From Pseudomonadota bacterium (lineage in GTDB: Bacteria; Pseudomonadota; Gammaproteobacteria; Burkholderiales; Burkholderiaceae_C), in contig JAIUOW010000005.1 in NCBI GenBank assembly GCA_020161775.1, positions 80,209 through 144,208 on the forward strand: a DNA stretch of 64,000 bases, given 5' to 3'. Both the position numbers and the translations under genes were made by a program. How positions within the stretch are numbered: the stretch's first letter is position 1; the number at the start of each line of letters is the position of its first letter. Positions 13,530 through 39,111 of this stretch are shown here, piece by piece. The notes beneath the pieces were generated by a model. It saw nothing but the letters and a program-made list of their open reading frames with translations, was not told the DNA's origin and made no database searches.

Positions 13530-13565
13530 GGGATTCAGGGCCGGTCAAGTCTGTGGAAGGTGGCC

Positions 13566-18697: not shown

Positions 18698-21600
18698 ATG
18701 CACCCACGCACCCGAGCGATCCTCAACCGCCTGGCGCAACGCCTGAGCGCTGCAGACCATGCACTGAAAACCCAGCTGACCCAGCCGATGTCAGGCCCTG
18801 CACCACGCCCCTGGCTGCGCCGCGTGGCCCGGGTGTTCACATCGCTGTTCATTGCGCAGACCGTGATGGCTGGGGTGCCCGCGTATGCGCAAGTCACCGC
18901 CGCACCCGGCGCGCCTGCTGGCCAGAAGCCGTTGATCGACGCGGCGGCCAACGGCACCCCCATCGTGCTGATCGCGCCGCCCAGCCAGCGCGGCGTCAGC
19001 CGCAACCAGTACGACCAGCTCAACGTCGGCCCCAAAGGCCTGATCCTGAACAACAGCACCGCCAATGTGCAAACGCAGATCGGCGGCTGGATCAGCGGCA
19101 ACCTGCAGCTGGGCCGCACACCGGCGCGGATCATCCTGAACGAAGTCACCGGCCCTCAGGCCAGCCAGCTGCGCGGCACGATCGAAGTTGGCGGACAAAA
19201 AGCCGACATCGTGATCGCCAACCCCAACGGCATCACCTGCAGCGGCTGCGGCTTCCTGAACGCGGACCGCGCCACGCTCACCACCGGCACACCGCAGATC
19301 GGCGCCAACGGCACGGTCACCGGCTTTGACGTGCGCCAGGGCGTGATCCAGATCGGCCCCGAAGGCTTGAACGCAACCGAACAACAGCAGCTGGACCTGC
19401 ACGCCCGCGGCCTGGTGATTGAAGGCGAGGTGTACTCGCAGAACCTGCAGGCCGTGATCGGCGCCAACCAGGTGGTTTACGGCACGCTGCATGCGCTGGT
19501 GCAGGCCACCGCGCAAGACGGCACCGGCGAGGCGCCGCGCCTGGCAGTGGACATCAAGGCGCTGGGCGGCATGTATGCCGGGCAAATCTACCTGATCGCA
19601 ACCGACAAAGGCCTTGGCGTCAACAGCACCGGGCGCGCAGCCACCCTGTCGGGCAACCTGGTGCTGTCGGCCAACGGCGACCTGACGCTCAAGGACACCT
19701 ATGCAACGGGCGATGTCCGGCTCGCGTCGGCCGGCAAGACCACCCTGACGGGCCAGACCGTGGCTGACGGCGCGGTGACCATCAACGCCGGGGACCAACT
19801 GACCCACAGCGGTGCGCTGCAGGCGCCCACGCTGCAACTGAACGCCCCTGCCCTGCACAACAGCGGCAGCATCACCCAGACGAAGGCAGGCGCCAACCTG
19901 GGGCTGACGCTGCCCGGAGGCCTGAACAACAGCGGGCAAATCTACACGCCGGGCAACCTGACGGTGCAGGCTGGCGCCGTCAGCACCGGCGCAGCCCATG
20001 GAACGATGACAGGCCAGCTGAGCGCCGGAGGCTCCCTGCAGGTATCGGCCGCCCAGCTGCAACTGACCGGGCAGCAACTGGCCGCCAACGGCAACATCAC
20101 CCTGGACGCCAGCGGCAAGCTGGACGTGACAGGCACCACCGTATCGGCCAACGGGCAGACCCGGTTGGCCGGTAGTGAAATCGCGCTGGAGCGTGCGCGG
20201 ATTGCGGCTGTGGGCAATGTGCAGATCACCAGCCAGGGCGTGGTCACGGCGAACGCGGCGGACATCAGCAGCAACGCGACGCTCAGCGTCCAGGGCAGCC
20301 GTGTAGATGTCAGCGCGGCCACCATGACGGCCGTGGTCACGGCCAGTATCAAGGCGGACGGTGAAATCAAACTGGACGGCAGCCAGCTTGCCGCGGGCCA
20401 GCGCGTGGAGCTGGTGGGCCAAGGCATCAGCACGCCCGGCGCGACGGTCACCGCAGACAAAATCACCATCGACGCAGGCGCGGGCGCACTGACCAACCCC
20501 GGCGGCAAGATCCTGGCCAGCTCCGCTGAAGCGGACGCGCTCACGGTCAATGCGACCGGTATCACCAACCAGGGCGGCGAGCTGCGCGCCAATGGCGGGC
20601 TGACGCTGGACGCACGCGGCGGTGTGATCGACAACACGGCAGGCGTGATCGCGGGCACCACCGGCGCGTTGACCAACCTGGGCGGCCTGACCAACAAGGG
20701 TGGCATCCTCTACACGCAAAGCGACCTCTCCATCGCCAGCACCGCGCTGGACAACAGCGAAGGCGCCATCGTCACCGCCGGCAGCCTGAGCGTCAGCACG
20801 CCCGGCCAGACCATCAACAACACCAAAGGCCTGATGCAGGCGGGCGGCTCGGTCAGCCTGGACAGCGGCAGCGCGGACCTGAAGAGCGCGGACGGTACCG
20901 TCGTGGCAGGCACGCAACTGACGGTCAACGCCGGTACGGTGGACACGGCGGAAGGCACGCTGGCCGCGGGCACCGACATGACCGTGACGGCGGGCCAACT
21001 GCAGGCGGGCAGCGCCAAGCTGGGCAGCGGCGGGGCCATGAACATCACGGCCAGCGGCAATGCCGGCTTGGGCACGGCGGAAGTCGGCGCCGGTGGTGAT
21101 CTGTCCATTCAAGCCGGTACCGTGCAGGCCACCGGCGCCAACGTGGCCAGCAACGCCAATGTGCAGGTCACCGGCGGCAGCATCACCGGCGGCAACTGGT
21201 CAGCGCAAGGCAACCTTGCGGCGACCAGCGCGGGTGCGCTCAACGTCACGGGCGGCAGCCTGCTGGCGGGCGGAGACCTGACAGCACAAGGCCAGGGCAT
21301 CGTCACGGACAACGCCAGGCTGGGCGGCCAGACGGTCACGCTGAACGCGGGCACGGGCGCCTTGAGCAATGTGGGAGGCCAGATCCACGGCAGGGCCAAC
21401 CTGCACATCCAGGCCAGCCATCTGGCCAACCGCAACGGCACGGTGGCCACCGGCGGTGCCCTGACGCTACAGGGTGCCGCGCTGGAGAACCACGCGGGCA
21501 CCCTGCAGGCCGCGGGCAACCTGACCATCCATACGGCAGGCCAGGCCCTGGACAACACCGCAGGCAAGATCATCTCGGGCGGCAACACGATCGTACAGGC

Positions 21601-24600
21601 CGGTGCATTGAGCAACAGCGGCGGCACGATCAGCGCGGGTGGAACGGCCCATGTGCAGGCTGCGGCCCTGAACACGGTCCAGGGCCAGATCAGCGGCACC
21701 CGCCAGCTGGACATCCTGGTGACCCAGCGCCTGACAGCCGTTGGCGCCACGCTGGGCACAGAGGGCAAGTTCACGGCCAGCGCGGGCGAGATCGACGCCC
21801 GGTCTGCGACGGCCACGGCTGGCGAAACGCTGGCGGTCGCATCGTCAGGTGCGCTGGATATGCGCAGTGCCACCATCACGGCCCAGGGACCGCAGGCGGG
21901 TGACATCCAGATCACCGGCGGCAGCGTCACCGCAGGCAACGCCGCGATCACGGGCGGCGCAGGCGTGGCCCTGGCCTCGGGTGGCGCGATAGACGTGGAC
22001 GCCGCGAACATCGCGGCCCTGAGGACACTGGCCGTGCAGGCGGGTGCAGCGCTGACGGCTGATGCCGCCACGATCCAGACCAACGAACAACTCACGATCA
22101 CGGGAACGACGGTTGCCGCGACCGGCGCTACGCTGTCAGCCGGCGGCAAAGCGGAAGTCACAGCCACCACCGGCGCAGCCACTTTGAACAACGTCAGTCT
22201 GATGGCTGGCGACACGGCGGCAGTGACTGCCGTCGGTATCGCCGCCACAGGTGCCTCCATCGGCGCGGTGAACAACGTGACGCTGAACGCCGGTACCGGC
22301 GATTTCACGGCACCCAACGCTTTGGTGCAAAGCCAGAGCGCCAGCATCAGCCTGAACGCGGCCAACGTCAACGTGACGGGTAGCCCGGCGGCAGGCGCGG
22401 CACCCACCACGGGTTTGCTGGCAGGCCAGGCCATCGCGATCACCGCCACCGGCGCAGTGGACGTGTCGGGCGCTGCTACCTACGCCGGCACCGATATCAC
22501 CATTACGGCGCAAGGCAGCATCATCAACAACGCCGGGCGGATCATCGCGGGCAACCAGGCCAGCCTGAGCGGCGCCGTCCTGAACAACCGGGGCGGCACC
22601 ATCGACGCCAACGGCCCCATCGCCGTCAGCGTCACCACCGGCCAGGTCAACAACGACCAGGGCCGCATCAGTACGCGCGACGTGCTGACCATGAGCACAC
22701 CCACAGGCGGCGCTGCAGGCCCGCTGACCAGCCTGACCAACGCAGGCGGCGTCATTGAAACAACAGGCGCGCTTAACGCCCAGCTGCAAAACTTCAACAA
22801 CGAAGGCGGCAGCGTCGTCGCCCTGGCTGGCCTGACCATCACCGGCGGCCCGGTGACCAACACGGGCGGCCAGCTGGCGTCGCAAGGCAATGTCAGCGTC
22901 AACACCCAGGGTGGCGCCTTCAATGGCGACGATGGCAAGGTGCTCAGCACGCTAGGCAACATCATCCTTACCGCTGGCGCCACGACGTTGAACAGCGCGA
23001 CCGTGACGAGTGGCGGAAGCACCACGTTCACCACGGGTGATCTGCAGGCCAGCCAGGCGCGGATCGGCGCGCAAGGGAACTTCAACGCGACGGCCAGCGG
23101 CGCCGTGACCGCAGACCGGGCCGTGATGGCCGCTGGCGGCAGCGCGGGCATCGCGGCAACGCAGGGGATTGCCGTCAATGGCGGCAGCGTCAGCGCACAA
23201 ACCATCCGCCTGGATGCGGGAAGCGGCGTACTGAACAACACATCGGGTAACCTGACCGCACGGACCACCACGGGCACGGCCATGACGCTGCAAGGCCAGG
23301 GCCTGACCAATGACGGCGGCATGATCGCCTCCAATGCCGACCTGAGCATCAACGCCGGTGCGGGCAGCTCGAGCAACGCGGCGGGGCAGATTCTGGCGGT
23401 GGGCGCAGCCGACATCCGCTCGACGGGACTGAACAACGTGGGCGGCACCATCGCCGCCAACGGCAACCTGACGATCAACGCGGCCCAGGCCCACGCGAAC
23501 GCCGCCACCGACAGCACTGGCGGCACGATCCAAAGCGGCCAGAACATTGCGCTCACGGCGGGCTCCACGACACTGACCAACGCCACCATCACCAGCGGCG
23601 GCAATACCACGCTGAGTACAGCAGCGCTGCAGGCCAACCAGGCCCGCATCAACGCAGGAGGCAACTTCAGTGCAACATCCAGCGCGGCAGTGACCGCGCA
23701 GCAGCTGGCATTGGCGGTGGGGGGCAGCGCAGCCATTACGGCCGCCCAAGGCATCGACCTCAGCGGGGGGAACGTCAGCGCCCAGACGATCAACGCGACC
23801 GCAGGCGGTGTCCTGAACAACACCTCCGGCAACCTGACGGCCAGCGCCACCACTGGCACGGCGCTCACGATGCAGAGCCAGGGCCTGGTCAACGACCAGG
23901 GCACCATCGCCTCCAATGCGGGCCTGAGCATCAACGCGACCACGGGCAGCGCCAGCAACGCTGCCGGCCGGGTGCTGGCGCTGGGCGTGGCCGATGTGCG
24001 GTCCACCGGCATGAGCAACGTGGGCGGCACCATGACCTCCAACGGCAACCTGACCATCAACACCGTTCAGGCCCACGCGAACGCCGCCATCGACAGCACG
24101 GGCGGCACGCTGCAAAGCGGCCAGAACATCACGCTGACCGCAGGCGCCACCACATTGACCAACGCCACCGTCACCAGCGGCGGCAACACCACGCTGAACA
24201 CAGCAGCGCTACAGGCCAATCAGGCGCGCATCAACGCACAGGGCAACTTCAGCACAACATCCAGCGCGGCAGTGACCGCGCAGCAGCTGGCCCTGGCAGC
24301 GGGCGGCAGCGCCGTCATCACGGCTACCCAAGGAATCGACCTCAGCGGGGGCAGCGTCAGCGCCCAGACGATCACCATGAACGCGGGTGGCGTGCTGAAC
24401 AACACCTCCGGCAACCTGACCGCTAGCGCCACCACTGGCACTGCCCTCACGATGCAGAGCCAGGGCCTGGTCAACGACCAGGGCACCATCGCCTCCAATG
24501 CGGGCCTGAGCATCAACGAGACCACCGGCAGCATCAGCAACACCGCCGGGCGTGTGCTGGCATTGGGCGCGGCTGAAATGCGGTCCACCGGCCTCGCCAA

Positions 24601-27600
24601 CGTGGGCGGCACGATTGCGTCCAACGGCAACCTGACGATCAATGCGGCTCAGGCTCACGCCAACGCCGCCACCGACAGCACGGGCGGCATGCTGCAAAGC
24701 GGCCAGAACATCACGCTGACGGCGGGCGCCACGACGCTGACCAACGCCACCGTCACCAGCGGCGGCAACACCACGCTGAACACAGCAGAGCTGCAAGCCA
24801 ATCAGGCGCGCATCAATGCACTGGGCAACTTCAGCGCAACGTCCAGCGCAGCGGTGACCGCGCAGCAGCTGGCCCTGGCGGCGGGCGGCAGCGCCGCCAT
24901 CACGGCAACCCAGGGCATCGACCTCAGCCGGGGCAGCGTCAGCGCGCAGACCATCGCCCTGAGCGCCGGGGGCGTCCTGAACAACACCGGCGGTAACCTG
25001 CACGCGGGCGCCACCACGGGAGACGCCCTCACCTTGCAAAGCCAGGGCCTGGTCAACGACCAGGGCACCATTGCTTCCAACGCCGGTCTGAGCATGCAGG
25101 CGAACACGGGCAGCGTCAGCAATGCCGCTGGCCGCGTGCTGGCGCTCGGCGCGGCCGATGTGCGGTCCACCGGGCTGAACAACGCAGCCGGGACCATCGC
25201 CTCCAACGGCGACCTGACGATCAATACAGTCCAGGCCCACGCGAACGCCGCCACTGACAGTACGGGCGGCACGCTGCAAAGCGGTCAGAACATTGCGTTG
25301 GCGGCAGGCAGCACCACATTGACCCACGCCACGGTCACCAGCGGCGGCAATACCACCCTCACGACTGGCGTTTTGCAGGCCAGCCAGGCCCGCATCAACG
25401 CACTGGGCAACTTCACCGCCACCTCCAGCGGCGCGGTGATGGCCGACCGGATGGCCTTGGCGGCCGGTGGCAGCGCAGCCATCACCGCAGCGCAAGGCAT
25501 AGACGTCAACCGGGGCAGCGTCAGCGCCCAGACCATCAACCTGAACGCCGGTGGCGGCGCGCTGAACAACAACGCAGGCAGCATCCAGGCCGTGGGCGCG
25601 CTCGACATCCGGTCCACAGGCCTGAACAACCGCGCCGGGACCATCGCCTCCAACGGCGACCTGACCCTCAACGCGACGCTGGCCAACGCCATCGCCACGC
25701 TGGACAGCACCGATGGCGCCGTTCGCAGCGCCCAAGCCATCACCCTGACGGCGGGCGCCACCACCTTGACCAACGCCACGGTCACGAGCGGCGGCAACAC
25801 CACGCTGAACACGGCCGACCTGCAGGCCAGTCAGGCCCGCATCAACACGCTGGGCAACCTTACCGCCACCGCCAGCGGCGCGGTGACAGCCGACCAGGTG
25901 ACCCTGGCGGCGGGCGGCAGCGCGGCCATCACGGCTACGCAGGGCATCGATGTCAACCGCGGCACGGTGAGCGCGCAGACCGTCAACCTGAATGCCGGCG
26001 GCATCCTGAACAACAACGCAGGCAGCCTGACCGCGACGGGTGCGGCCGACATCCGATCCGCCGGCCTGACCAACGTGGACGGCACCATCGCCTCCAACGG
26101 CGCGCTGACGGTGAATGCAGCCCAAGCCAACACGGACGCTGGAACGAACAACACGCGCGGCACGATCCGCAGCGCCCAGTCCAGCGTCACGCTGACCACA
26201 GGCGCGCTGAACAACGCCAACGCAGACATCGGCGCAGCCGAAGACGTGCGGATCACCGCCACTGGCGCGCTGACCAACGACCAGGCCCGCATCGTCGCTG
26301 GACGGGACCTGACCCTCGGCGCCAATGCTGTGGGCAACACATCGGGCCTGATTGCAGGCAACCGCAACGCAACGCTGACGGTGGGCGCGGGCGGTGTCAC
26401 GAACACCAGCGGCACCATTCAGGCGGCAAACGACCTGACCGTCACGTCCGCAGGTGACGTGGCCAACACCAGCGGCCAGCTGCTGGCGGGCCACCAGCTG
26501 ACCCTGAGCGGCGCGGCGCTGACCAACAGCCAGGGCCAGATCGGCGCGCAAACCGGCAGCGCCACGCTGGCCGTCACCTCCTACATCAACATCGGCGGCA
26601 GCGTGGTGGCGGGCGGCGCCCTGACGCTGGACACCCAGGGCGGCGCGCTCACGGCCAATGGGTCCACATTGGCCAGCGGCGCCGACATGACGCTGCGCGC
26701 GGGCGCGGCCCAACTGAGCGATGCGGCTATCACGGCTGGCGGCTCCATCAACGCGCAGGTCACGAGCCTGGAAGCTACCCGCGCCAACGTGCAGGCAGCA
26801 GGCAACCTGAGCGCCACGGCGGGCGCCGGTGCTTTCAACGCAGCCAACAGCACCTGGCAGGCAGGCCAGGCGGTGGCGCTCACGGGCGGCGCTGTTGCCG
26901 TGACCGACGCCACAGTCTCAGCCAACACGACGGTCGCCGTCACCGGCGCCAGCGTGGACGCCACGCGCGCCAGCATCACCAGCCCGGGCGACGTGAGCGT
27001 GGTGGCCACCCACGGTGCGCTGGACATCACCCACGCCAGCCTGTTGGCGGGCCGCGACCTGACTGCGACCGGCACCGGCGCGGGCACCACCACCGGCGCT
27101 CAGGCCCTGGCCGGGCGCGACCTGACCCTGGGCAACGGCACGGCCTTTGACTTTGCCGCAGCCAACCTGCAATACCAGTTTGGCCGCGATCTGACGGTGC
27201 GCGCGCAAGGCATCAGCACGGCGGGCCAGCAAGTGTCCGCACGCAACCTGACGCTGGACGCGGGCAGCGGCCAGCTGAACAACCAGGGCGGCACCCTGCA
27301 AGCGACGGGCACGCTGACCGCCAGCGGCACGGGCCTGAACAACCAAAGCGGTGTGATCGCGGCCAACGGCGCCGTCACCGCCAGCGCAGGCACCGGCACC
27401 CTGAACAACGCGGGCGGCAAGATCTACAGCACCCAGGGCGCTACCAGCGTCGCCGGTGCAGCCATAGCCAACGCCACCGGCACCCTCAGCGCCGCCACCG
27501 ACGTCAGCATCACCGGCGGCACGCTGAACAACTCGGGCAACACCATCGCGGCAGGCCGCAACCTGACCGCCACCCTGAGCGGCGCGGTGAACAACGCAGG

Positions 27601-30600
27601 CGGCCGTCTGATCGCCAATACCGGTGCGGCCAGCGTCATGGCCGGCGACGTGAACAACGCCACCGGCGTCATCTCTGGCAGCCACTCGGTCACCATGACC
27701 ACGCGTGCCATCAACAACGAAGGCGGCGTCATTGAATCGGGCGCAGGCGGCATCAGCATCGACACGCAAGGCCACACGCTGACCAACACGGACAGCGGCA
27801 CCACGCGCGGCATCGTCAGCCAGGGCAACATCGCCATCGCGGCCGGTGACATCAAGAACCAGCTGGGCTACATCGGCGCCAATGGCAGCCTGAACATCAC
27901 GCAGTCCAGCACCATCCACAACCAGGGTGGCACCCTGCTCGGCCTGGGTGGCGTATCGGTCACCACCGGCATGCTGAACAACCAGGGCGGCAGCGTGCTA
28001 GGTGGCGTGGATGTGAACGTCAATGCAGGGACGGTGAACAACGGCAACTCCGGCACGATCTATGCCGCACGCGACCTGACCGTCAACGCCAACAGCATCG
28101 ACAACAGCAACACCCGAAACGGCGCGTACACCACGGGCCTGCTTGCCGGGCGCAACGCCAGCATCACGGCCAGCACGATCAACAACGCCAGCGGCGCCAT
28201 CGTGGCGCTGGGCGACGCCACCGTGCGCGCCAGCAGCAGCCTGAACAACACCCAGGGCCAGATCTCGGGCAACGCCGTCACCATCCAGACCCCGAGCCTG
28301 ACCAACACGGCAGGCCGGGCCGACGCCCAGCAGCGCATGACGCTGCAAGTGCCGCAGTTCAGCGCCGACGGCGTGCTGGCCAGCAACGGCGCGATGAACC
28401 TGGAACTGCAGGGCAACTACGTGAACACCGGCGTGGTCAGCGCCAGTGGCGACCTGAGCATCAGCACCACGGGCAGCTACACCAACCTGAACCGGGTGAG
28501 TGCGCAGAACAGCCTGAGCCTGACGGCCGCAGGCATCGACAACGCGTCCAACGCCACGATTGACTCCCAGCGCACAACGCTGAACGCAGGCGGCGGCACC
28601 ATCAACAACGCAGGCCTGATCAACAGCACGCAGGGCCAGACGAGCATCGCCGCAGGCACACTGAACAACACCGGGCGCATCTACGGCGACAGCATCACGC
28701 TGAGCGCCAGCGTGAACAACAGCGCAGCAGCGGGCAACGGCGCCGCCATCGCCACGCGCGGGGGCAGCGTCACCATCAACGGCGCCCTGAACAACACCGA
28801 CGACGCCCTGGTGCTGAGCCTGGGCAACATCCAGATCAACGGCAGCGCGCGCAACGACGGATCGACCATCAACGCGATGGGCAACGTGACCATTACCGGC
28901 CCGTTGACCAACACGCACGTGGGCCTGCAAACGGGCAGCCAGACGCGCACCGACCCTGCCCACGCGGTGTACATCACCCCCAGCGGCAGCACCACCCGGT
29001 ACAACGTAGGCGACCTGGCCTGGACGGGCCACAGCGGCGGCCACTGGGTGTTGCCCAGCGCCACCTACCCGCTGGGCAGCTTCGGCGCGGACCCCAAGGC
29101 GCCTGCCATGCAATGCGGGCTGGACGGCAACGGTGGTGAAGGCGGCAACTGGGTGTGCAACCCCGGCTACGGCGTGCAAGACCCTATCTGGGCATTGATG
29201 GGCGTGGCCAGCCCGGGCAACCCGCCGCCAGACATGGCCATGGGCTGCATGGACTTTGGTGGGGAAACCGGCAACGCGCAGCGCATCACCAGCGGCGCCT
29301 GCGGAAGTTACTGGGTCAGCGTGGACGCCTACGAAGCAAGCAAGGCCAACGCCTACGCGCAACTGGACAACCGGATCAACGCCTTCAATGCGGACCTGAA
29401 CGCCCGCACGCTGATCGACTGGTACGAAACCACGATCACGGGCACGACCATCACGGAAACAACCGTCGTGCCCGGCCGGGCGGCCAAGGTACTGGCCGGG
29501 GGCAACATCAGCATCGGAGGCGGCAGCAACATTGACAGCATCATCGTGGCCGCAGGCAGCCTGAACGGCGGCGGCATGAGCAACATCGCCACCCAGGGCA
29601 CGCGCCAGACCAGCGCCACCGGCTACCAGGTGTTCAGCCACCGCACGTGGAGCGGCGGCTTCAGCAGCAGCTACGGGCGCGAAACCAGCGCACCGCAGCC
29701 CATCGCCGACGCCCCGGTGACCGAGACCCTCACCCTGCCCGTCCTGCAATACCAAAGCAACGGCAACCCCAGCGGCCCCGCAGCGGGCGGCAGCAGCACC
29801 CCGGTGGGCGGTGCCACAGCCAGCGTGGTGGGTGTTGGAAGGAACATCGGCACCGCACGCAACGCCAGCGGCGCAGGCACGGCCAGTGCGGCGGTACAAG
29901 CCGGCACGCCCACCGCCGCAACCGGTGGCGCGGTGCAGGTCGATGCCACCACCACCGCCCAGGCGCAAAGTGCTGCGGCCGTGAATGGCGCACAGATCAC
30001 AGGGGGCAGCGCAGTCACTGCTGGTGCTGGCAACACCCCGGCAGGCAGCGGCGCAGTGATCACGGGCACGGGCGCAGCCCCCACGGGAAGCACTGCCGTC
30101 ACCGCAGGCACGGGCGCGAACCCCACGGGCAACGCTGCGCTGACCGCAAGCACAGGCAACAACGCCACTTCAGGCACGGCCGTCACGACAAGCCCGAACA
30201 CAAACCCGAACACAGGCGGAACCGTCCAAGCCACCGCTGGCACCCAGCCAAACGGCGCCATCACCGCCAGCCTGAGCGCCGCCCCCGACGCCGCCCTGCC
30301 CGGCAGCGTGATCGCAGCGGGCGTGCGCGCGGGCCAGCTGGCCGCCATCACCACATCGCTGACCAACTTTGCAGCGGCAGCCGCCATCCAGCCCAAACAA
30401 GCCAGCGAGGTGGACACCAGCACCCGGCGCAGCGCCCCGGTCACCGTGAAGGCGGCAGGCTACAGCACGGTGCGCGCCAGTGGCGCCGTTCGCGCTCCCG
30501 GCAACCAGCTCTTCAGCATCAACCGCAACCCACGCGCCCCGCTGGTGGAGACAGACCCGGCCTTCACCGGCTACCGCAACTGGATCAGCAGCGCCTACAT

Positions 30601-33600
30601 GCTGCAGCAGTTGGCGCTTGATCCCGAGCGCAACCTCAAGCTGTATGGCGACGGCTTCGCCGAACAACGCCTGATCGACGACCAGATCCTGGCGCTGACG
30701 GGCAGACGGTTCCTGAGCGGCTACCAAAGCACCGAAGACCAGTACCACGACCTGATGGATGCGGGCGTGATCTTTGCCAAGGCCTACCAGCTGACGCCCG
30801 GCGTGGCCCTGAGCGCGGAACAGATGGCCCTGCTGACCACGGACATCGTGTGGCTGGAGGCGAAGGAAGTGACCCTGCCTGACGGCAGCACCACGATGGC
30901 GCTGGTGCCTACGGTGTACCTGAGAAGGCCCACCAGTGGCGACCTGTCGCCCACGGGCGCACTGATTGCGGGCAGCAACGTGACGCTGCGCAGTCCAAGC
31001 GACCTGACCAACTCCGGCACCATCATTGCCAATGGCGATGCGGCCAACGGTGATGGCAAGCTGACGGTGACGGGCAACAACGTCAACAACAGCGGCACGC
31101 TGGCGGGCAACCAGATCGCCATCACCGCAGCCAACACCCTGAACAACATCGGCGGTGTAGTTCAAGGCCTGGGCACAGGCAGCACGGCCAGCCTGAACGC
31201 CAGAGACATCATCCTGCGGACCACAACGCAAAGCAGCACGGCCAGCATAGAAGGCCCGAACGGCACCAGCACAGGCACCAGAACCAACGCGGACAGAATT
31301 GCCACGGTATCAGCGGAGTCCGTCAAGCTGGCGGCACTGAACAACATCAGCCTGGCGGGCGCCGTGGTCAACGCCACCGGCAACCTGGCCATGACGGCAG
31401 GCAACGCCATCACCAGCGAAGCCGTGCAGACGGGCTACACGCTGAACACCCCGCTGGGCGGCAGCCACAGCGGCCGCACGGGGTACATGGCTGAAGCGGC
31501 AACGAAGCAACAGCTCACCACCCTGGCCGGCAACAACGTGGCGATCACGGCAACAGGCGACGCAGCGTTCAAGGGAACGAACATCAAGGCCACGAACGAC
31601 CTGGCCGTCACCGCTAAAACCATCACGATCGACGCCGTGAAGGAGAGCCTGGCCCTGGATCAACAGGGCATCGGCAGAAAGGGCTACGAACGCGTCGGTA
31701 CATCCGACGAAACGCTGGCCGGCGCCAATGTGACGGCAGGCAACCACGCGACGATCACCGCGACGGGCGGCAACATCACTGGCACGGGCGCGACCATCAT
31801 CGCCACCCACGGCGCCGCCACCCTGACCGCCAGCGGTGACGTAGGCCTGAACGCCGCCGCCACACAGCACAGTACCCTGGCCGAAAGCTTCAACGCCAGC
31901 AAGGGGGTCTTCTCCAGCAAGAGCAGCCTGCGCGAAAGCGACAGCCAGGCCACGCTGGCGCAAGGCAGCAGCGTGAGCGGCAAAACCGTGGCCATCGTCG
32001 GCGGGCGCGACGTGAACATCCACGGCTCCAGCGTGGTCAGCGACACGCAAACCACCATCAGCGCGGCGCGCAACGTGAACATCACGGCAGCAACGCAAAC
32101 GCTGGAAAGCAACAGCTACACCGAAGACAAACGCTCCGGCCTGGGCGCCATGGGCGGCATCAGCTACGGCAAACGCGAGCAAAGCACCGACACCGACACC
32201 ACCGCCACCCGGGCCGCCGCCAGCAACATCGCCAGCCTGAAGGGCAACGTGAGCATCAGCGCGGGCCAGACCTACAACCAGGTGGGCAGCAACGTCATGA
32301 CTCCCGTGGGCAACGTGGACATCACCGCCAAAGCCGTCAGCATCACCGCAGCCCGCGAAACCAACACTGCCGAGACCGAGCAGAAATTCAAGCAGTCCGG
32401 CATCAGCGTCAACGCCACTGGGGCCATCGCTACGGCCATCCACACGATGGACAGTCTGGCCGAGCAGGCAGGTAAAGCCAAGGACGGCCGCATGCAGGGC
32501 CTCGCTGCATTGGCCGGCGCCGTAGAAGCCAAGAAGGCATTGGACGCGATAGAAGCACTGGCCAAGGATCCCGCCAATGCGGGCTCCATCGGCATCAGCA
32601 TCAGCCTGGGCACGCAGAAGAACGAGAGCAGCTCCCAGAGCCAAAGCAACACCGCCGCAGGCTCCACGGTAGCGGCCGGCAATAACGTCACCATCACCGC
32701 CCAGGGCGCGGGCGCCGACAGCGACATCACCGTACAGGGCAGCCAGATCAGCGCGGCCAACATCACCAGCCTGAAAGCCGATGGCCAAGTGAACCTGCTG
32801 GCCGCGCAGAACACCAGCGAACAGAACAGCCAGAACAGCGGCAGCAGCGCCAGCATCGGCGTGGGCATCACCTTTGGCCAAAGAACAGGGATCAGCTTCA
32901 ACGCAAGCGCCAGTGCCAGCAAAGGCAACAGCGACGGCAGCGACCTGACCCACGTCAACACCCAGGTCACCGGCGGTCAGCTCGTCAACATCCAAAGCGG
33001 CGGCGACACCACGCTCAAGGGTGCGGTCGTCAGCGGACCGACCGTCAACGCGAACGTGGGCGGCAACCTGAAGATCGAAAGCCTGCAAGACACCGCCCAG
33101 TTTGACGAGAAGCAGAGCAACGCAGGCTTCGGCGTCACGCTGTGCATCCCTCCGCTGTGCATAGGCTCGTCCAGCGCCACCGTCTCCGCCGGCAAAACCA
33201 ACATCAACAGCAACTACCAAAGCGTCACCGAGCAAAGCGGCATCAAGGCAGGCGATGGCGGCTTCAACGTGAACGTGCTGGGCGCCACCGACCTCAAGGG
33301 CGGCGTCATCAGCAGCACCGTCAAAGCGCACAACGACGGCAAGAACAGCTTTGCCTCCGCGGGCGGCGTGACGCTGACGGACATCCAGAACAGCGCCAGC
33401 TACAACGCAAAGGGCGTGAGTATCACGGCAGGCTACTCGGGTGCGCCGCAGGACGGCAACGGCAACCCGGTCAAGGACAAGGACGGCAACGTCATCGGTG
33501 GCAAGCCCATCGGCGGCGGCGGCATCGGGTCCGACAAAGGCAGCACCAGCAGCACGACACAAGCGGGCATCACCGGAATCGCAGGCAACACGGCAGCTAG

Positions 33601-35161
33601 AACAGGCGATTCGGAAACGGGTATCAAGCCCATCTTCGACGCCGCCACCGTGCGCGACAACATCAACGCGCAGGTCAGCATCACCGCCACCGCCCTGCCC
33701 GTCGTCGCCAAAGGCTGGGCGGACTTTGCCAACGAGCAGGAGCGCACGGCCAAGACCCAGCAGGACAAGGACTGCTGGAAGGAAGGCGGCGCCTGCCGCG
33801 TGGCCGGGCATGTGGCGATTGGCGCGCTGGCTGGTGGCGCCAGTGGCGCCGCAGGCGCGGGGGTAAGCCAGGCCGTGGTTCCCACGATCGGCGATGCGCT
33901 CAGAGACACCAACCTGCCTGATGCGGTCAAGCAGGTCATCGTAGCCGGGCTGGGTGTTGCAATAGGTGCGGCAGCGGGTGGGACAGCGGGCGCCATCACC
34001 GGGGGCAATGCCACGGTGAACAACTATCTGACGCAAGCTCAATGGAAAGCTATGGCCGACGAACGGGCCAAGTGCGCGGACAAGGCCTGCCGTGACGGCG
34101 TAGACACCAGATACGCGGGCATCAGCGCCAGCCAGGACGAAGCGTTGCGACAGGCCTGCATGAACCTGAACAGCGCTACCTGCCGGGGCATGGTGAACGA
34201 GGCGGTCAGTGGCAGCGCCACGCAGCAGACGCTGGTGGCCAGCGGCGCCCTGCCACCCAACTACCTGGGCGGGCGCGACTTCAACAGCAACGTCAATCTG
34301 TTCGTGCAAAAGATACAGGCCCAGGACGTGGTGAACGCTTGTGCCGCTAATGCGGCGCAGTGCGACCAGTCCAGATTGGCAGGCAGTGTGCGGCTGCTGA
34401 TGACGGCAACGGTCGTGGCCGCATCGGCAGCGGCGGTGACGGTGCTGGGAGCCGAAGCAGCGGCGCTGGCGGCCTTCGCCAGAAACCCAGTGCTTTACTG
34501 CACGCAAAGCCCGACGGCGTGCATGGCGGGCGTGGAGCTGGCCCTGTGCGCGGCTGCGGGCCCCGCATGTCCACCGGGTACGTTGGTGCCCACGGCCAGC
34601 CAGCTGGCGACCGTCAAGCAGGTCGTTGCCGACGCGGAGGCAGCGGCTGCGGGGCGGGTGGCGGGCACCGCGGGCGGGGGAAGTTCTGCAGCGGGGGGCG
34701 TGCGTACCACAGGGGCGGCAGGTGGCAGCGGGGCGAATGGAGGAGTGGTGCCCAGCGGCTTTGCGAATGCGAATGAGTTCGCCAACTTTGGCGGCAATGT
34801 CCGCGCGGGACTTAAGAGTGCGGGCTACCCAGATGCCGAGCCAATTCTCCAAGGTAGTGCTGTTACAGGCAAAAGTTTCGGCACCGGCGCACCGTTTGAT
34901 GCTGGCCGAGTAAGTGATTTTGACGTGGCTCTTGCAAGTCCGGCCTTACTACAACGCGCACAGGATCTGGGTATTGGCGTACGTTCCGGAGGTACCCGGA
35001 CTGGGCCCCTCTCTGCGCGTGACTTGGAAGCGCTTGGTCTTACAAAATTTGCTTCTGACATTAGCGCTCAAGCTGGTCGCGAGGTCAATTTCATGATCTA
35101 TCAATCATCTGCCGCCGCCATGCAAAGAGCGCCTAGCATTAGCCTACCCGGCGGAAAGTAG
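18698..35161 (+). CDS. cdiA: giant two-partner-secretion exoprotein, contact-dependent inhibition toxin CdiA (filamentous haemagglutinin family), 5487 aa
   Basis: N-terminal TPS domain ([54 protein letters not shown]). Thousands of residues of FHA-type repeats follow, then the conserved [19 protein letters not shown]...DGFAEQRLI...TTDIVWLE region, FHA-2-like repeats and a VENN-like pretoxin motif [10 protein letters not shown]. The C-terminal region is variable. Met31 (18788) is an alternative start. Confidence 0.9.
   Translation: [5487 protein letters not shown]
18950..19690 (+). other. TPS (haemagglutination activity) secretion domain of CdiA
   Basis: Motifs NQYDQLNV...LILNN and ANPNGI. 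Boundaries are approximate. Confidence 0.7.
22940..26200 (+). repeat. tandem coding super-repeat inside cdiA: units anchored at 22982, 23567, 24149, 24731, 25313 and 25760 (spacings 585, 582, 582, 582, 447 nt)
   Basis: The anchor codons T-T-L-(T/N)-(N/S/H)-A-T-(V/I)-T-S-G-G recur in frame at these positions. Neighbouring units share long identical stretches, e.g. ctcacgatgcagagccagggcctggtcaacgaccagggcaccatcgcctccaatgcgggcctgagcatcaacg. Outer boundaries are approximate. Confidence 0.85.
34016..34024 (+). other. VENN-like pretoxin boundary motif (V-N-N in [10 protein letters not shown]) of CdiA
   Basis: gtgaacaac sits in the cdiA frame (about residues 5107-5109), preceded by a Gly/Ala-rich segment as in PT-VENN domains. 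Confidence 0.6.
34757..35161 (+). other. compositionally distinct C-terminal toxin tip of CdiA (~134 aa) with GS...DFD and GxxxxGKS motifs
   Basis: Codon usage switches to many A/T-ending codons from about 34757. Hand counts give 31/60 and 34/60 G+C at 34861-34980, against 40/60 at 34441-34500. Motifs: GSAVTGKS at 34853-34876 and DFD at 34916-34924. Confidence 0.6.
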
Positions 35162-35168
35162 AAAACCT

Positions 35169-35489
35169 ATGGCGACGTACATTCTTTATGGAAGCAAAGC
35201 ATCTCCTACCAAAGCGAAAAAAATTCTGGAGGAATTACTCACATTGCAATTTGAGGCAAGAGAAAGTGACTATCAGAATGGCGAATACTTCCGGGCCGGC
35301 AATAGGACAGGAGAACACTTTGAACTGAAAAAAAACGAGGACCCATTTGATGGAGATCCAGTGGAAATGAAGTTCCCGGAGTTCCCAACATTGCTGTACA
35401 TCAACGCTACTTCGAGGTCGGAAGAGTTAACAAAAATTGTGGGGCATGCACGTGGGGGGTTTACTCTTTTGCGACACGAGGATTTCTAG
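35169..35489 (+). CDS. cdiI: candidate CdiI immunity protein (106 aa, no family recognised)
   Basis: Starts 8 nt after the cdiA stop. Low G+C (hand count 47/120 at 35161-35280). Acidic soluble protein MATYILYGSKASPTKAKKILEELL... The position is canonical for cdiI. Confidence 0.65.
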   Translation: MATYILYGSKASPTKAKKILEELLTLQFEARESDYQNGEYFRAGNRTGEHFELKKNEDPFDGDPVEMKFPEFPTLLYINATSRSEELTKIVGHARGGFTLLRHEDF

Positions 35490-35577
35490 TCTGAATAGGT
35501 CTGTCAGAAATTTTGTGTTTTATGTCCAGCCCCATCGAGCAAGCCAGCATGATTTGCCGGCGCACCTTATTTATTAG

Positions 35578-35739
35578 CCACTTCCAAAACCGAAAGTGGG
35601 GTCAGGTACGCTACAAGCCAACGGTAACCGTGTTTGGGTTGTTGACATGGGTCGGCAAGTTGATACGGGCGGACAGACTTCGATTCAGATCGTGGTCCGT
35701 GATGGAACAACCCAAGTTATTACGGCCTTCCAAAAATGA
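35578..35739 (+). pseudogene. orphan toxin C-terminal remnant (open frame without a credible start)
   Basis: The frame is open from the stop at 35575-35577 and reads LPKPKVGSGTLQANGNRVWVVDMGRQVDTGGQTSIQIVVRDGTTQVITAFQK. Its TGA overlaps the ATG of the next ORF (ATGA at 35736-39). No SD and no ATG near the 5' end. Confidence 0.3.
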
Positions 35740-35954
35740 AACTCTGTCCCTTCTGTCAGCAAGATGTTGTTTGGCGTGTTCGGCTTAAAACTATGCTTGA
35801 GAATCACTTCTTGATGTGCTTTGAGTGCGATTCCTTGTGGCTCGAAGACCAACCTGTTTCCGATCAAGCAGGAACGACGTTTGATAAACATATGCAATCA
35901 CTTGGGCGTATGCCGGATTGGAAAGATATCGAGAAGCTCGAAATGGTTGAGTAA
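35736..35954 (+). CDS. small zinc-ribbon protein (CPFC...CFEC), candidate orphan immunity protein
   Basis: 72 aa, low G+C, acidic. Two CxxC pairs (Cys4/Cys7 and Cys28/Cys31). ATGA coupling to the preceding toxin-like remnant. Confidence 0.5.
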   Translation: MKLCPFCQQDVVWRVRLKTMLENHFLMCFECDSLWLEDQPVSDQAGTTFDKHMQSLGRMPDWKDIEKLEMVE

Positions 35955-36165
35955 AACCTCTCTGTGCAGTCCCACCGGGAGCTGTGTGAATCTTTGTGTT
36001 CAAGGCGCTGAGAGACGTCCACCGACCCAGCAACCAACCCCGCATGATTTCAAGCCCGCAAATCCGTCCAGCCGTGGGACGGTTGACCGAAATTTTCTCA
36101 ATCACCCAAATCTGAACCAATCAAGTCTTTGACCTCCCTGCAACTACCGGCCCAGATACACCGAC

Positions 36166-36360
36166 ATGAGACTCCTCATCGCCCTCCTCCTCCCCTGGCT
36201 CACCTTCTTCACCATTGGCCGCCCTTTCGCCGGCATTTTCTGCCTGATCCTGCAGCTCACCCTGATTGGCTGGCTGCCCGCAACCATTTGGGCGGTCTAT
36301 GCGCTCAGCCAGTTCAAGACCGATCAGAAAATCCGCAAAGCACTTGCAGCGCGTGACTGA
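36166..36360 (+). CDS. small two-helix membrane protein, YqaE/Pmp3 (UPF0057)-like
   Basis: MRLLIALLLPWLTFFTIGRPFAGIFCLILQLTLIGWLPATIWAVYAL matches the LLPP..VF...G......N..LTLLG.IPG.IHA.Y pattern of Pmp3-type proteolipids. Followed by a terminator-like hairpin. Confidence 0.6.
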   Translation: MRLLIALLLPWLTFFTIGRPFAGIFCLILQLTLIGWLPATIWAVYALSQFKTDQKIRKALAARD

Positions 36361-36437
36361 TCCAGGCGCCTGACTCCTGCTTTTCGCGCTCCGGCACCCG
36401 CACTCCCGCAACTCAAACCCCTTCAGCTTTTTCACCC

Positions 36438-36474
36438 AGCTTCCGGCCTGGCCAGCCGAAGGCTGCTCTTTTTT
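36438..36474 (+). terminator. rho-independent terminator candidate
   Basis: Stem agcttccgg / ccgaaggct (9 bp with one mismatch and one G-U), a 9-nt loop, then ctcTTTTTT. Confidence 0.5.
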
Positions 36475-36502
36475 CGGCCAAAAACTCTTTCGGAGGATCA
36501 AA

Positions 36503-37114
36503 TTGAATTCCAAACTACTCATTGCATCGCTGTTTTCTGCTGTCACGCTTGCCGCTTGCGGCGGTGGTGGCGGCAGCTCTGACGTTACTGCAGCCGATGC
36601 GTCGGGCCCGTCAACCCCCGCGCCGGTATTCGCGCCAGCACCCGCCGCAGGTGCAACTTTTGACGCAGCGTGCCCCGACGCTGCGCGCAAGATCACCCTG
36701 ACCAACTCAACGATTTCCGGCGCCAACACCTCGGTGACCAATGACAACGTGACCTTGCGCGTGCGCTTCCCCGCGGGGCCCGCGACTGTCATGGTGTGCC
36801 CGCTCGGCTCTGCCACTGCTGGTTTCCCCGCCGTGCCCGCCGCGCTGACTGCACTGCTCACCGGCTCGCCGGCAGCGGCTGTGGTCGCCACGGGCGAGTT
36901 TTCGTCACTGACCAACAAGCAGCTGGACATCAGCTTCGACTTCGGCACCCAGACGGCTGACGCCATCGCCGCGAAGAAGATCGTCGCCTACACCATCGTC
37001 AACGGCGCATGGGCGCGCACGGCGCTCGCTACCACCTTCGCGGCAGGCAGCACGGCTTCGTCCAGGGTCGTGACGGCGCCGATCGAGCAGGCCGGTTTCT
37101 ACACCATCGAGTAA
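36503..37114 (+). CDS. hypothetical lipoprotein
   Basis: TTG start 5 nt after GGAGG. Lipobox LFSAVTLAAC followed by GGGGGSS. No family recognised. Confidence 0.6.
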   Translation: MNSKLLIASLFSAVTLAACGGGGGSSDVTAADASGPSTPAPVFAPAPAAGATFDAACPDAARKITLTNSTISGANTSVTNDNVTLRVRFPAGPATVMVCPLGSATAGFPAVPAALTALLTGSPAAAVVATGEFSSLTNKQLDISFDFGTQTADAIAAKKIVAYTIVNGAWARTALATTFAAGSTASSRVVTAPIEQAGFYTIE

Positions 37115-37207: not shown

Positions 37208-38698
37208 ATGAACAAGCCCGTAGACACGGATCTTTCCCTGGACCTCGGCCTGTCCTGGCGCAACAGCTTTGCCGCGCTGGGGCCGGACTTTTACACGCCG
37301 TTGCAGCCCACACCCCTGCCCGCCCCGCACTGGGTGGCCGCCAACCCCGCGTTGGCTCGCGAGCTGGGGCTGGATGAAGCCTGGCTGGCCTCGCCCGCCG
37401 CGCTGGAGGCGTTCACGGGCAACTTGGGCATTGCCGGCACCCAGCCGCTGGCCAGTGTGTACAGCGGGCACCAGTTTGGCGTGTGGGCGGGGCAGCTGGG
37501 CGACGGCCGGGCCATTTTGCTGGGCGAGGCGCAGACGCCCGCCGGCGCGCAGGAGTTCCAGCTCAAGGGCGCGGGCCTCACGCCCTATTCACGCATGGGC
37601 GACGGGCGGGCCGTGCTGCGCTCCAGCATCCGCGAATTTTTGTGCTCCGAGGCCATGCACGGTTTGGGCATCCCCACCACCCGCGCGCTGTGCGTCACCG
37701 GCTCGCCCGCGCCGGTGTACCGTGAAGAGGCGGAGACTGCCGCCGTCGTCACCCGCGTGGCGCCCAGCTTCATCCGCTTTGGCCATTTCGAGCACTTTGC
37801 CGCGCGCGACCAGCTGGGCCCGCTGCGCGTGCTGGCTGACTACGTGATCGACCATTTCTATCCGGAATGCCGCACCAGCGACCGCTACGACGGCAACCCC
37901 TATGCCGCGCTGCTGGACGCGGTGGCCGCGCGCACGGCCGCCATGGTGGCGCAATGGCAGGCCGTGGGCTTTTGCCATGGCGTCATGAACACCGACAACA
38001 TGAGCATCCTGGGCCTGACGATCGACTACGGCCCGTTCCAGTTCATGGATGCGTTCATCCCCGGCCACATCTGCAACCACAGTGACCCCGGCGGCCGTTA
38101 TGCCTACAACAAGCAGCCCAACATCGCTTACTGGAACCTGTTCTGCCTGGGCCAGGCGCTGCTGCCGCTGATTGGCGAGCAGGAACTGGCCCTGGCCGCG
38201 CTGGAGCCCTACAAGGCACTCTTCCCGCGCGAGCTGGAGGCGCGCATGCGCGCCAAGCTGGGCCTGGCCACGGCACACGAAGGCGACCGCGAACTGATCG
38301 AAACCATCCAGAAGCTCATGGCCGCCGGCGCGGTGGACCACACCATCTTCTGGCGGCGCCTGTCGCATGCGGTGGCGGGCGGTGATTTTGAGCCGGTGCG
38401 CGACCTGTTCGCCGACCGCGCCGGGCTGGACGCTTGGCTGGCCACCTACACACCCCGGCTGGCGCATGAACCCGCGGGCCAGGCCGCCGGCCTGATGCTG
38501 CGCACCAACCCCAAGTACGTGCTGCGCAATCATCTGGGCGAGCAGGCCATCCGTCAGGCGAAACTTGGCGACTTTTCGGAAATCAACACCTTGCTGGCGC
38601 TGCTGCAGGCCCCATTTGACGAACACCCGGGTCATGACGCATACGCCGGCTTTCCGCCCGACTGGGCATCATCCATAGAAATCAGCTGTTCATCATGA
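37208..38698 (+). CDS. selO: protein adenylyltransferase SelO (YdiU/UPF0061 family)
   Basis: Characteristic N-terminal region [22 protein letters not shown]...[23 protein letters not shown] and pseudokinase-fold motifs [21 protein letters not shown]. Confidence 0.9.
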
Positions 38699-39111
38699 GC
38701 TTCAAGATCCAGAAAACAGACGCCGAGTGGAAGGCCCTGCTCGCCCAGAAAGGGGCCGAGCCCCTGGCGTTCGACGTGACCCGGCACGAGGCCACCGAGC
38801 GCGCCTTCACAGGCAAGTACGCCGACAACAAGGAGCCCGGCACCTATGCCTGCATCTGCTGCGGCAAACCGCTGTTTGACGCGGCAGCCAAGTACGATTC
38901 GGGCACCGGCTGGCCCAGCTATTTCCAGCCGCTGGCGCCCGATGCGGTCGAGACCAAAGTGGACGGCCTGCTGTGGATGAAGCGCACCGAGGTGCACTGC
39001 GCCGACTGCGGCGCGCACCTGGGCCATGTATTCGAGGACGGCCCTGCGCCCACCGGCCTGCGCTATTGCATGAATTCGGCGTCCCTGGATTTCAAGAAGC
39101 AACAAGCATGA
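38695..39111 (+). CDS. msrB: peptide-methionine (R)-S-oxide reductase
   Basis: CxxC pairs (CICCGKPLF and [13 protein letters not shown]) and the catalytic [13 protein letters not shown] overlap with the selO stop. Confidence 0.92.

Follow-up and report, generated by a model that had tools for sequence, protein, structure and literature searches.

The question raised by this locus is what the last residues of a giant CdiA protein do. A contact-dependent growth inhibition (CDI) system lies in the window (the whole stretch of 64,000 nucleotides analysed here, positions 80,209 to 144,208 of contig JAIUOW010000005.1 in the Pseudomonadota bacterium assembly GCA_020161775.1), and its exoprotein ends in a tip of 134 amino acids (aa) in which a sequence-only reading of the DNA had recognised a foreign toxin with a pattern resembling Pol-beta nucleotidyltransferases. 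The answer that we favour, at a probability of roughly 0.6, is a CDI-delivered toxin/immunity cassette in which the toxin has a minimal Pol-beta nucleotidyltransferase (NTase) fold and would nucleotidylate a hydroxyl on some essential macromolecule, the immunity protein acting by binding. The features that define the system are the following, with coordinates counted in the window.

16933 to 18696, plus strand: cdiB/tpsB, the outer-membrane transporter of the two-partner secretion (TPS) pair (Pfam ShlB, 9.7e-86, with POTRA_3 and POTRA_2).
18698 to 35161, plus strand: cdiA/tpsA, a single open reading frame (ORF) for a 5487-aa filamentous exoprotein with the toxin at its C-terminus.
34730 to 35489, plus strand: the very probably exchangeable cassette of toxin tip and immunity gene, matched by blastn over 760 nt at 87.6% identity in the metagenome-assembled genome (MAG) Betaproteobacteria HGW-9 (L005 2648-3407).
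34745 to 35161, plus strand: the toxin domain, running from VVPSGF to PGGK and then stop, with the family alignment starting at a near-invariant P-x-G-F; predicted to be minimal Pol-beta-fold NTase-like.
35169 to 35489, plus strand: cdiI, encoding the putative immunity protein, acidic and of 106 aa, which begins 7 nt past the cdiA stop and has 36 close homologues.

Because a ShlB/FhaC-type POTRA transporter adjoins an exoprotein with a TPS secretion domain (aa 64-330, 4.6e-49) and haemagglutinin repeats (Fil_haemagg, 2.6e-13; Fil_haemagg_2, 1.5e-55; all Pfam), the locus can be assigned to two-partner secretion of the CdiB/CdiA type. Translation of 33362-35161 places the tip peptide at the very end of the CdiA ORF, with the stop codon at 35159-35161, and the peptide given in the sequence-only reading is exactly this C-terminus. 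Tip residues are numbered from the G at 34757 (residue 1), the 134 residues thus covering 34757-35158.

The tip is foreign to the gene that carries it, as judged from a break in codon usage and from a second genome that has only the cassette in common with this one. The G+C content at third codon positions (GC3) is 0.463 over the 134 tip codons, as opposed to 0.857 +/- 0.041, with a minimum of 0.716, over 5219 windows of equal size in the CdiA ORF; it is 0.477 in the 106-aa ORF downstream and 0.851 in the nearby core gene selO. Along the DNA, the G+C profile in steps of 200 nt drops from 0.71-0.77 (34400-34800) to 0.44-0.51 (35000-35900), and the low-GC island stops before the selO/msrB genes (37208-39111). 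In the closest genome, MAG HGW-9, DNA similarity is confined to 34730-35489, with nothing up- or downstream, and the cassette there follows a different N-terminal sequence of the CdiA C-terminal region (CT). Since the flanking CT sequence differs, the limits of the exchangeable cassette are set by the common stretch, which runs from the interior of a linker to the immunity stop codon. A switch of codon usage from about position 34757, with G+C falling to 31/60 at 34861-34920 and 34/60 at 34921-34980, had been noted from the letters alone; these counts are exact, and both the GC3 break and the MAG HGW-9 cassette confirm the foreign origin that they suggested. It is thus close to certain that 34730-35489 represents a toxin/immunity cassette which came in by horizontal exchange and was joined to the end of a CDI system of the CdiB/CdiA type. 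Scans for tRNAs, promoters and terminators around the island gave nothing informative.

When compared with named families, the tip remains without a match in Pfam, the Ntox/Tox models included, and in NCBIfam, PHROGs and PADLOC, and searches against PDB sequences, for which the family profile and two divergent members served as queries beside the tip itself, returned chance-level matches only (Top7 and ribosomal protein S13, E about 0.5), in line with the earlier remark that it resembles no named toxin family. It has 121 homologues in the clustered database, and an exhaustive HMMER scan collected 756 clusters at 50% identity with E <= 1e-3, including 537 with E <= 1e-10. Among the matches listed, the domain lies at the C-terminus or within about 30 residues of it, and the carriers include RHS repeats, VWA, PT-HINT (8), PT-TG, WXG100, T7SS_signal, PAAR, prePAAR, PT-VENN, DUF637, Phage_portal and PPE, that is, the standard delivery modules of polymorphic toxins. 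The routes represented are the type V (T5SS, with CdiA), type VI (T6SS, with Rhs/PAAR) and type VII (T7SS, with WXG100/LXG-like proteins) secretion systems, PT-HINT/PT-TG proteins and phage-portal proteins. A scan of species-representative genomes found the family in Beta-, Gamma- and Alphaproteobacteria, in Actinomycetota (Streptomyces, Frankia, Pseudonocardia), in Chloroflexota and in Acidobacteriota, with Pseudomonas, Burkholderia and Providencia among the further genera; plasmid and phage collections yielded one unannotated match on a Pseudomonas aeruginosa plasmid and no phage match. On the strength of this homology, the last ~138 residues of CdiA are a member of a large, unnamed family of C-terminal polymorphic-toxin domains. 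The literature, the coverage of which was incomplete, contained neither a paper on this family nor one on a canonical Pol-beta NTase acting as a toxin of CDI, Rhs or T7SS systems, so that an earlier description is possible. Some members show two matched toxin-domain stretches per protein (P0147, P0148, P0158, P0168, P0221 and P0234), which may be partial duplications or tandem toxin domains; N-terminal PPE domains occur in two members, and phage-portal domains in two.

The family is tied to a partner. When 53 reference-genome loci were searched with a hidden Markov model of cdiI, 52 proved to have a homologue immediately behind the toxin and in the same orientation, the 53rd being cut by a contig edge, and the 52 span Pseudomonadota, Actinomycetota, Chloroflexota and Acidobacteriota; the pair also occurs in an Rhs orphan array of Providencia (42% identity) and in Streptomyces (32%). 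The proteins differ in charge, with a median isoelectric point (pI) of 9.05 for the toxin-domain family and of 4.62 for the immunity family (5.4 for CdiI itself). The idea that the tip is the toxic end of CdiA and the 106-aa ORF its partner, already put forward in the sequence-only reading, is therefore well founded in the recurrence of the pair: judged from gene order and homology, the 106-aa ORF is almost certainly the cognate immunity gene of the tip, the two forming one toxin/immunity cassette. An AlphaFold2 (AF2) model of CdiI is an alpha/beta sandwich (predicted local distance difference test, pLDDT, 87), the structural neighbours of which (the N-terminal domain of spermine synthase, sandwiches resembling AdoMetDC and, at low confidence, PII) are uninformative on mechanism, and the protein has no match in Pfam, NCBIfam, PHROGs or PADLOC, nor any to HEPN.

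What the toxin does has to be approached through its predicted structure. The AF2 model of the tip, built from an alignment of 43 sequences, has a pLDDT of 92.3 and a predicted template modelling score of 0.86, with helices at residues 5-21, 34-37, 62-70, 87-92, 96-106 and 118-124, strands at 28-32, 55-60, 110-115 and 127-129, and a hairpin at 75-82. In the core, the order of helix 1, strand 1, helix 2, strand 2, helix 3 and strand 3 in an alpha/beta sandwich corresponds to the minimal NTase topology. When Foldseek was run with this model against the PDB, a check that the sequence-only reading had proposed, chains of MntA ranked first (7bxo_A: E 0.023, probability 0.98, template modelling score, TM, 0.46-0.49), and about 30 of the best 50 matches were Pol-beta NTases, such as TUT7, FAM46, GLD-2, CdnE, CCA-adding enzymes and trypanosome TUTases. 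Against the viral models of BFVD, NTases came out on top again, including a protein named "Polymerase beta nucleotidyltransferase domain". The tip thus probably adopts a minimal Pol-beta NTase fold, an assignment resting on the predicted structure, on an excess of NTases among the weak structural matches and on the exact placement of the invariant GS and SDxD residues described next.

34853 to 34870, plus strand: G33-S34-A-V-T37-G38, a GSxxxG of the NTase type where strand 1 passes into helix 2 (G33 and S34 in 137/137, T37 in 134/137, G38 in 136/137), collinear with FGSvarG of the MNT proteins.
34898 to 34900, plus strand: D48 (D in 133/137), within a 9-residue family-specific insert between GS and DxD.
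34913 to 34924, plus strand: S53-D54-F55-D56, a motif where strand 2 begins that is predicted to bind metal and NTP (S53 in 135/137, D54 and D56 in 137/137) and aligns with S38-D39-I-D41 of MntA.
34970 to 35050, plus strand: a family-specific insert of ~27 aa (residues 72-98, with R76, R81-T-G-P-L85 and L93-G-L95) with no MNT counterpart, a gap standing opposite it in the MNT profile.
35078 to 35101, plus strand: R108-E-V-N111-F-M-I-Y115, strand 3 (R108 in 135/137, V110 in 130, F112 and M113 in 132 each), with N111 at 35087-35089.

Conservation was counted over 137 family representatives, among which G33, S34, F47, D54, D56 and R81 are invariant and at least 95% conservation is reached by T37, G38, D48, S53, A68, G72, R76, T82, P84, L85, L93, G94, L95, R108, F112 and M113. 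The meaning of these positions can be read from MntA, in which G27, S28, S38, D39 and D41 bind AMP-PNP and two Mg2+ ions, S38-D39-I-D41 being in contact with the gamma-phosphate and with both metals; the second metal site is completed by D71, and mutation of GS or DxD abolishes AMP transfer (PMC7641770). The MNT sequences taken from PDB alignments have the form FGSxxxG-X-SDxD, with the third Asp in a V-D-L-V strand. By analogy with this arrangement in the model, the site of the tip probably binds nucleoside triphosphate (NTP) and Mg2+ through GS and SDxD with two carboxylates. The insert, modelled as a beta-hairpin followed by a helix-turn-helix, is a candidate substrate-binding element (R76 in 135/137, R81 in 137/137, T82 in 134, P84 in 132, L85 in 134, L93 in 132, G94 in 131 and L95 in 134). 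Its part at residues 81-98 (34997-35050), modelled as helix, L-G-L turn and helix, could bind a nucleic-acid backbone in the manner of a helix-hairpin-helix; the divergent member P0117 matches, over its residues 51-96, a region of ribosomal protein S13 resembling such a motif, at a phmmer E of about 0.5, which is chance level and not significant.

As patterns in a single sequence, the motifs say little. Shuffling the tip produces the relaxed pattern G[GS]x9-25[DE]h[DE]h in 5.4% of cases, and CdiA contains it from three further starting points; the strict consensus, which asks for hydrophobic residues ahead of both G and the first D, is not literally satisfied by Q-G-S and S-D-F-D; the GS and DxD pairs are thus meaningful only through family conservation and their position in the predicted fold. 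All the strings reported in the sequence-only reading (G-S at 33-34, S-D-F-D at 53-56, REVNFMIY at 108-115 and GxxxxGKS at 33-40) are indeed present, but taken alone they do not exceed chance. The Pol-beta signature proposed there has stood in the order of helix, strand, GS and DxD strand, in the NTase neighbours and in the invariance of GS and DxD, and has fallen in one element, the acidic residue of REVNFMIY that was supposed to complete the site. The position of that residue, E109, is poorly conserved (Pro in 60, Glu in 41 and Asp in 21 of the 137), and E109 was rejected as the third carboxylate.

Several results weigh against NTase activity, or against parts of the reading built on it. The canonical third-carboxylate position, in collinearity with the MNT G-x-x-V-D-L-V strand under relaxed hhalign settings, is occupied by N111 (Asn in 95, His in 12, Ser in 11, Lys in 8 and Glu in 1 of the 137), which makes the active site atypical, and 42 of the 137 members lack any D or E in residues 108-116. 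The family conserves only one further Asp, D48, which may take over from the lacking carboxylate and is deleted in some actinobacterial and myxobacterial members; in addition, 19 residues separate GS from DxD, where MNT proteins have about 10. Every Foldseek E-value is at least 0.02 and every TM is below 0.5. At the sequence level, the tip has no significant NTase match in Pfam or NCBIfam, including PF01909 and PF18765; PF01909 was matched by one of 43 family members, at E = 0.039, and is absent from the 25 families listed for another 110 members. Profile comparison by hhalign with an MNT set assembled from PDB alignments and 120 PF01909/PF18765 homologues gave probabilities of 0.6-14% against single MNT sequences and of 1% against the 120-sequence profile: default settings aligned the SDxD segment only, a forced global alignment was meaningless, and with -mact 0.01 the alignment was collinear over the whole domain and not significant. 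Viral contigs, considered as a source for a wider MNT profile, offered a single locus and were dropped. Finally, the preference for an RNA target, to which we return below, draws only on charge and conserved arginines.

These weaknesses leave room for other explanations. A metal-dependent hydrolase, either RNase or DNase, could use the invariant Asp pair on a scaffold that merely resembles NTases. Most characterised CdiA-CT and Rhs toxins are nucleases, the basic domain and its acidic immunity protein would suit such an activity, and the NTase link is statistically weak and lacks its third carboxylate; however, Pfam, NCBIfam, PDB sequence and Foldseek searches produced no nuclease family or fold at all, nor did profile, PDB sequence or Foldseek searches lead to a known pore-forming family, the 137 representatives show no conserved His or Glu of the sort expected in a nuclease site, and the invariant GS(xxxG) that precedes DxD is a feature of nucleotide-phosphate binding in NTases and not of nucleases, so that we consider a nuclease unlikely. 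Quite unlikely, too, is an NTase-like enzyme acting on small molecules, whether by draining ATP or other NTPs or by synthesising a toxic nucleotide of the (p)ppApp-like, cyclic or dinucleotide kind, as do Tas1 or the CD-NTases. The size of 134 aa leaves little space for a module that binds a macromolecule, a CD-NTase (CdnE) does occur among the structural neighbours, and domains of the RelA/SpoT type were the only nucleotidyltransferases listed in the 2012 census of polymorphic toxins. Yet no RelA/SpoT homologue (RSH) stands among the best 50 Foldseek matches, the CD-NTase matches have probabilities of at most 0.14, the closest neighbour, MntA, modifies a protein, and the Arg-rich insert and the pairing of a basic toxin with acidic immunity fit a polyanionic substrate at least equally.

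The loss of the third carboxylate also recalls inactive NTase-fold proteins, and the tip could be a non-catalytic pseudo-enzyme that sequesters its target or a nucleotide stoichiometrically. This we regard as very improbable: GS and DxD are invariant in 137 divergent representatives from several phyla, and catalysis is favoured over sequestration because contact-dependent delivery brings few molecules into a cell. The Walker A string G33-S-A-V-T-G-K39-S40, which the sequence-only reading had offered as an alternative, literally matches GxxxxGKS (34853-34876) and, in the model, follows a beta-strand and begins a helix, as would be expected of a small P-loop NTPase or kinase. The lysine, however, is not conserved (K39 is Lys in 48 of 137, Arg in 35, Val in 22 and Gln in 11; S40 is Ser in 85), shuffling the tip yields a literal Walker A in 1% of cases and another stands at CdiA aa 4423, in the repeat region, the sole GTPase among the Foldseek matches, 1wf3, has a probability of 0.06 with no credible P-loop fold beside it, and 134 aa are too short for a P-loop NTPase core. 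The P-loop reading was rejected on the count of Lys at K39, and its chance of being right is close to nil. Nucleotidyl transfer is accordingly the chemistry that we somewhat favour for the modelled tip, and it has to be fitted into the architecture of the CdiA-CT, the upstream parts of which are as follows.

34013 to 34030, plus strand: TVNNYL (aa 5106-5111), a motif located in the translation that resembles VENN(x)L.
34031 to 34633, plus strand: the N-terminal part of the CT, ~200 aa in the translation, Cys-rich and hydrophobic, with a GC3 of 0.78 and host-like G+C.
34634 to 34744, plus strand: an Ala/Gly-rich linker in the translation that contains the recombination junction, DNA similarity to MAG HGW-9 beginning at 34730.

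No VENN, VDNN or ELYN motif and no PT-VENN match in Pfam were found in CdiA; TVNNYL is a plausible variant and, by analogy with known systems, may mark the start of the variable CT. The N-terminal part of the CT, which has sub-threshold Pfam matches only (DUF6862, E 0.0015, and HpaB_N), is presumed from the known architecture of CdiA-CTs to be the translocation or entry domain. With TVNNYL included (34013-34633), this part may be an undescribed domain for entry into the cytoplasm.

On the favoured mechanism, CdiA would bind a receptor on a neighbouring cell, the CT would be set free near TVNNYL, and the Cys-rich hydrophobic N-terminal part would carry the tip into the cytoplasm. There, the tip would bind NTP-Mg2+ through G33, S34, S53, D54 and D56 and move a nucleotidyl group onto a hydroxyl of an essential macromolecule, leading to growth arrest, while either D48, from the family-specific loop, or a two-carboxylate mechanism would compensate for Asn111. 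In the producer and its siblings, the immunity protein would bind the domain and block its activity. As for the target, we tentatively place the 3' end of an RNA first, for example tRNA in the manner of MenT, because the domain is basic, the insert Arg-rich and the immunity protein acidic; Tyr, Ser or Thr residues of a protein, as with MntA, would come second.

Known systems resemble this one in part. MntA, the antitoxin of the HEPN/MNT (HepT/MntA) pair (PF01909/PF18765; PDB 7bxo, 5yep and 6m6u), is the best structural neighbour of the tip model and, as judged by alignment, is of similar size (120-140 aa), has the same order of elements and carries GS(xxxG) and S-D-x-D at equivalent positions. 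In contrast to the tip, which is a secreted toxin, MntA poly-AMPylates a HEPN partner with an RX4HXY motif, whereas the partner of the tip is a 106-aa alpha/beta protein without a HEPN match; moreover, the tip has GSX19DXD where MntA has GSX10DXD, Asn111 where MntA has D71, an extra Arg-rich insert of ~27 aa, and no significant profile similarity to MntA. G-x-n-D-x-D motifs for nucleotidyl transfer are also found in the GX11DXD adenylyltransferases, such as the GS-ATase GlnE and Legionella DrrA/SidM, which AMPylate proteins and, in the case of DrrA, are delivered into another cell, and which are mentioned beside MntA (PMC7641770); these are much larger multi-domain proteins, and no sequence or structural match between them and the tip was seen.

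Among toxins, the working model for the action of the tip is provided by MenT/AbiEii (DUF1814), Pol-beta-fold NTases that arrest growth. MenT enzymes add nucleotides to the acceptor ends of tRNA. Unlike the tip, they are intracellular toxins of toxin-antitoxin systems, measure roughly 250-300 aa, carry a further lobe at the C-terminus and are not secreted; their antitoxins are unrelated to the 106-aa immunity protein, and the tip has neither a Pfam match to AbiEii (E <= 1) nor one of these proteins among its best 50 Foldseek matches. The secreted RSH toxins (Tas1 and the domains of the 2012 census) share an NTase-related fold, contact-dependent delivery and a cognate immunity protein, but they are pyrophosphokinases with different motifs, and the tip shows no match to RelA_SpoT in Pfam (E <= 1). 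With the classical CdiA-CT/CdiI pairs (EC93, EC869, NC101 and the tRNase toxins of Burkholderia), the locus has in common the gene order cdiB-cdiA-cdiI, a CT of two parts (a presumed entry domain and the toxin tip), low-GC cassettes open to exchange, downstream orphan modules and possibly a VENN-like boundary. It differs in that the characterised tips are nucleases or pore-formers, none of which is matched here, and in an immunity family that is unusually conserved across phyla and delivery systems. To our knowledge, nucleotidylation of RNA or protein is established for intracellular toxins (MenT) and for antitoxins (MntA) of toxin-antitoxin systems, and not for CDI or Rhs toxins.

Downstream of cdiI, the low-GC island continues with two further elements.

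35578 to 35739, plus strand: a remnant of ~53 aa of another toxin C-terminus (...VVRDGTTQVITAFQK, then stop), seen in translation, of low G+C and with an in-frame stop upstream at 35575-35577.
35736 to 35954, plus strand: a 72-aa Cys-rich ORF with four Cys in CxxC pairs, a GC3 of 0.479 and a start that overlaps the stop of the remnant (ATGA).

Because the ATG of the ORF overlaps the stop of the remnant, the two look like an orphan toxin/immunity module, of which the 72-aa ORF is likely, by position, to be the immunity gene; its own matches are sub-threshold and of the zinc-ribbon type only (Cys_rich_KTR, 4.4e-4, and Lar). Related loci show similar accretions. Tandem double ORFs of the immunity family follow the toxin in a Frankia symbiont, an alphaproteobacterial MAG and Phyllobacterium, and one locus has a second toxin-domain fragment beyond the immunity gene; these loci (L039 481-1225, L043 678-1549, L051 3561-4372 and L046 3840-4106) look like poly-immunity or orphan arrays. 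In Providencia (L001/L002 1-8471), the toxin homologue belongs to a series of orphan Rhs C-termini, one of them a Ribonuclease/Barstar pair of the barnase type, and between these modules lie several SymE_toxin genes in the opposite orientation.

Beyond the island, selO (protein adenylyltransferase SelO, Pfam 1.1e-126) and msrB (SelR domain) follow directly at 37208-39111 with host-like GC3, 0.85 in the case of selO, and the proximity of the AMPylating SelO to a putative NTase toxin looks like coincidence. The CDI locus is further flanked by long ORFs without Pfam matches (12762-16076 and 36121-37114), namely a 1104-aa ORF upstream of cdiB, an 829-aa ORF antisense over it, a low-complexity ORF of 281 aa on the minus strand and a 203-aa ORF with a lipoprotein-like signal (MNSKLLIASLFSAVTLAAC); some of these may be spurious because the DNA is so GC-rich.

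In its delivery and genetic logic, the system described here is probably an ordinary CDI system, in which the catalytic domain family is undescribed and its NTase site atypical; the family extends known themes rather than overturning them. The domain is common, with its 756 clusters, and nameless in Pfam and NCBIfam, and its strict pairing with one small immunity family offers a ready control as well as an easy way of annotating the family in genomes. Stated at its broadest, and at odds that we would put slightly short of even, the tip would be the founding example of a large and so far unrecognised family of minimal Pol-beta NTase toxins outside the RelA/SpoT branch, carried by type V, VI and VII secretion systems and phage-portal fusions, with a two-carboxylate site (Asn in place of the third Asp) and one immunity family, and would kill through the nucleotidylation of an RNA or protein that the target cell needs. 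Toxins of the CDI, Rhs and T7SS kinds have often yielded new enzymology as well as tools against essential bacterial targets. If the tip is indeed an active NTase, covalent nucleotidylation by a minimal Pol-beta enzyme would join the activities of interbacterial toxins, and the family would show how such an enzyme functions without the canonical third carboxylate and would point to a vulnerable target in the cell.

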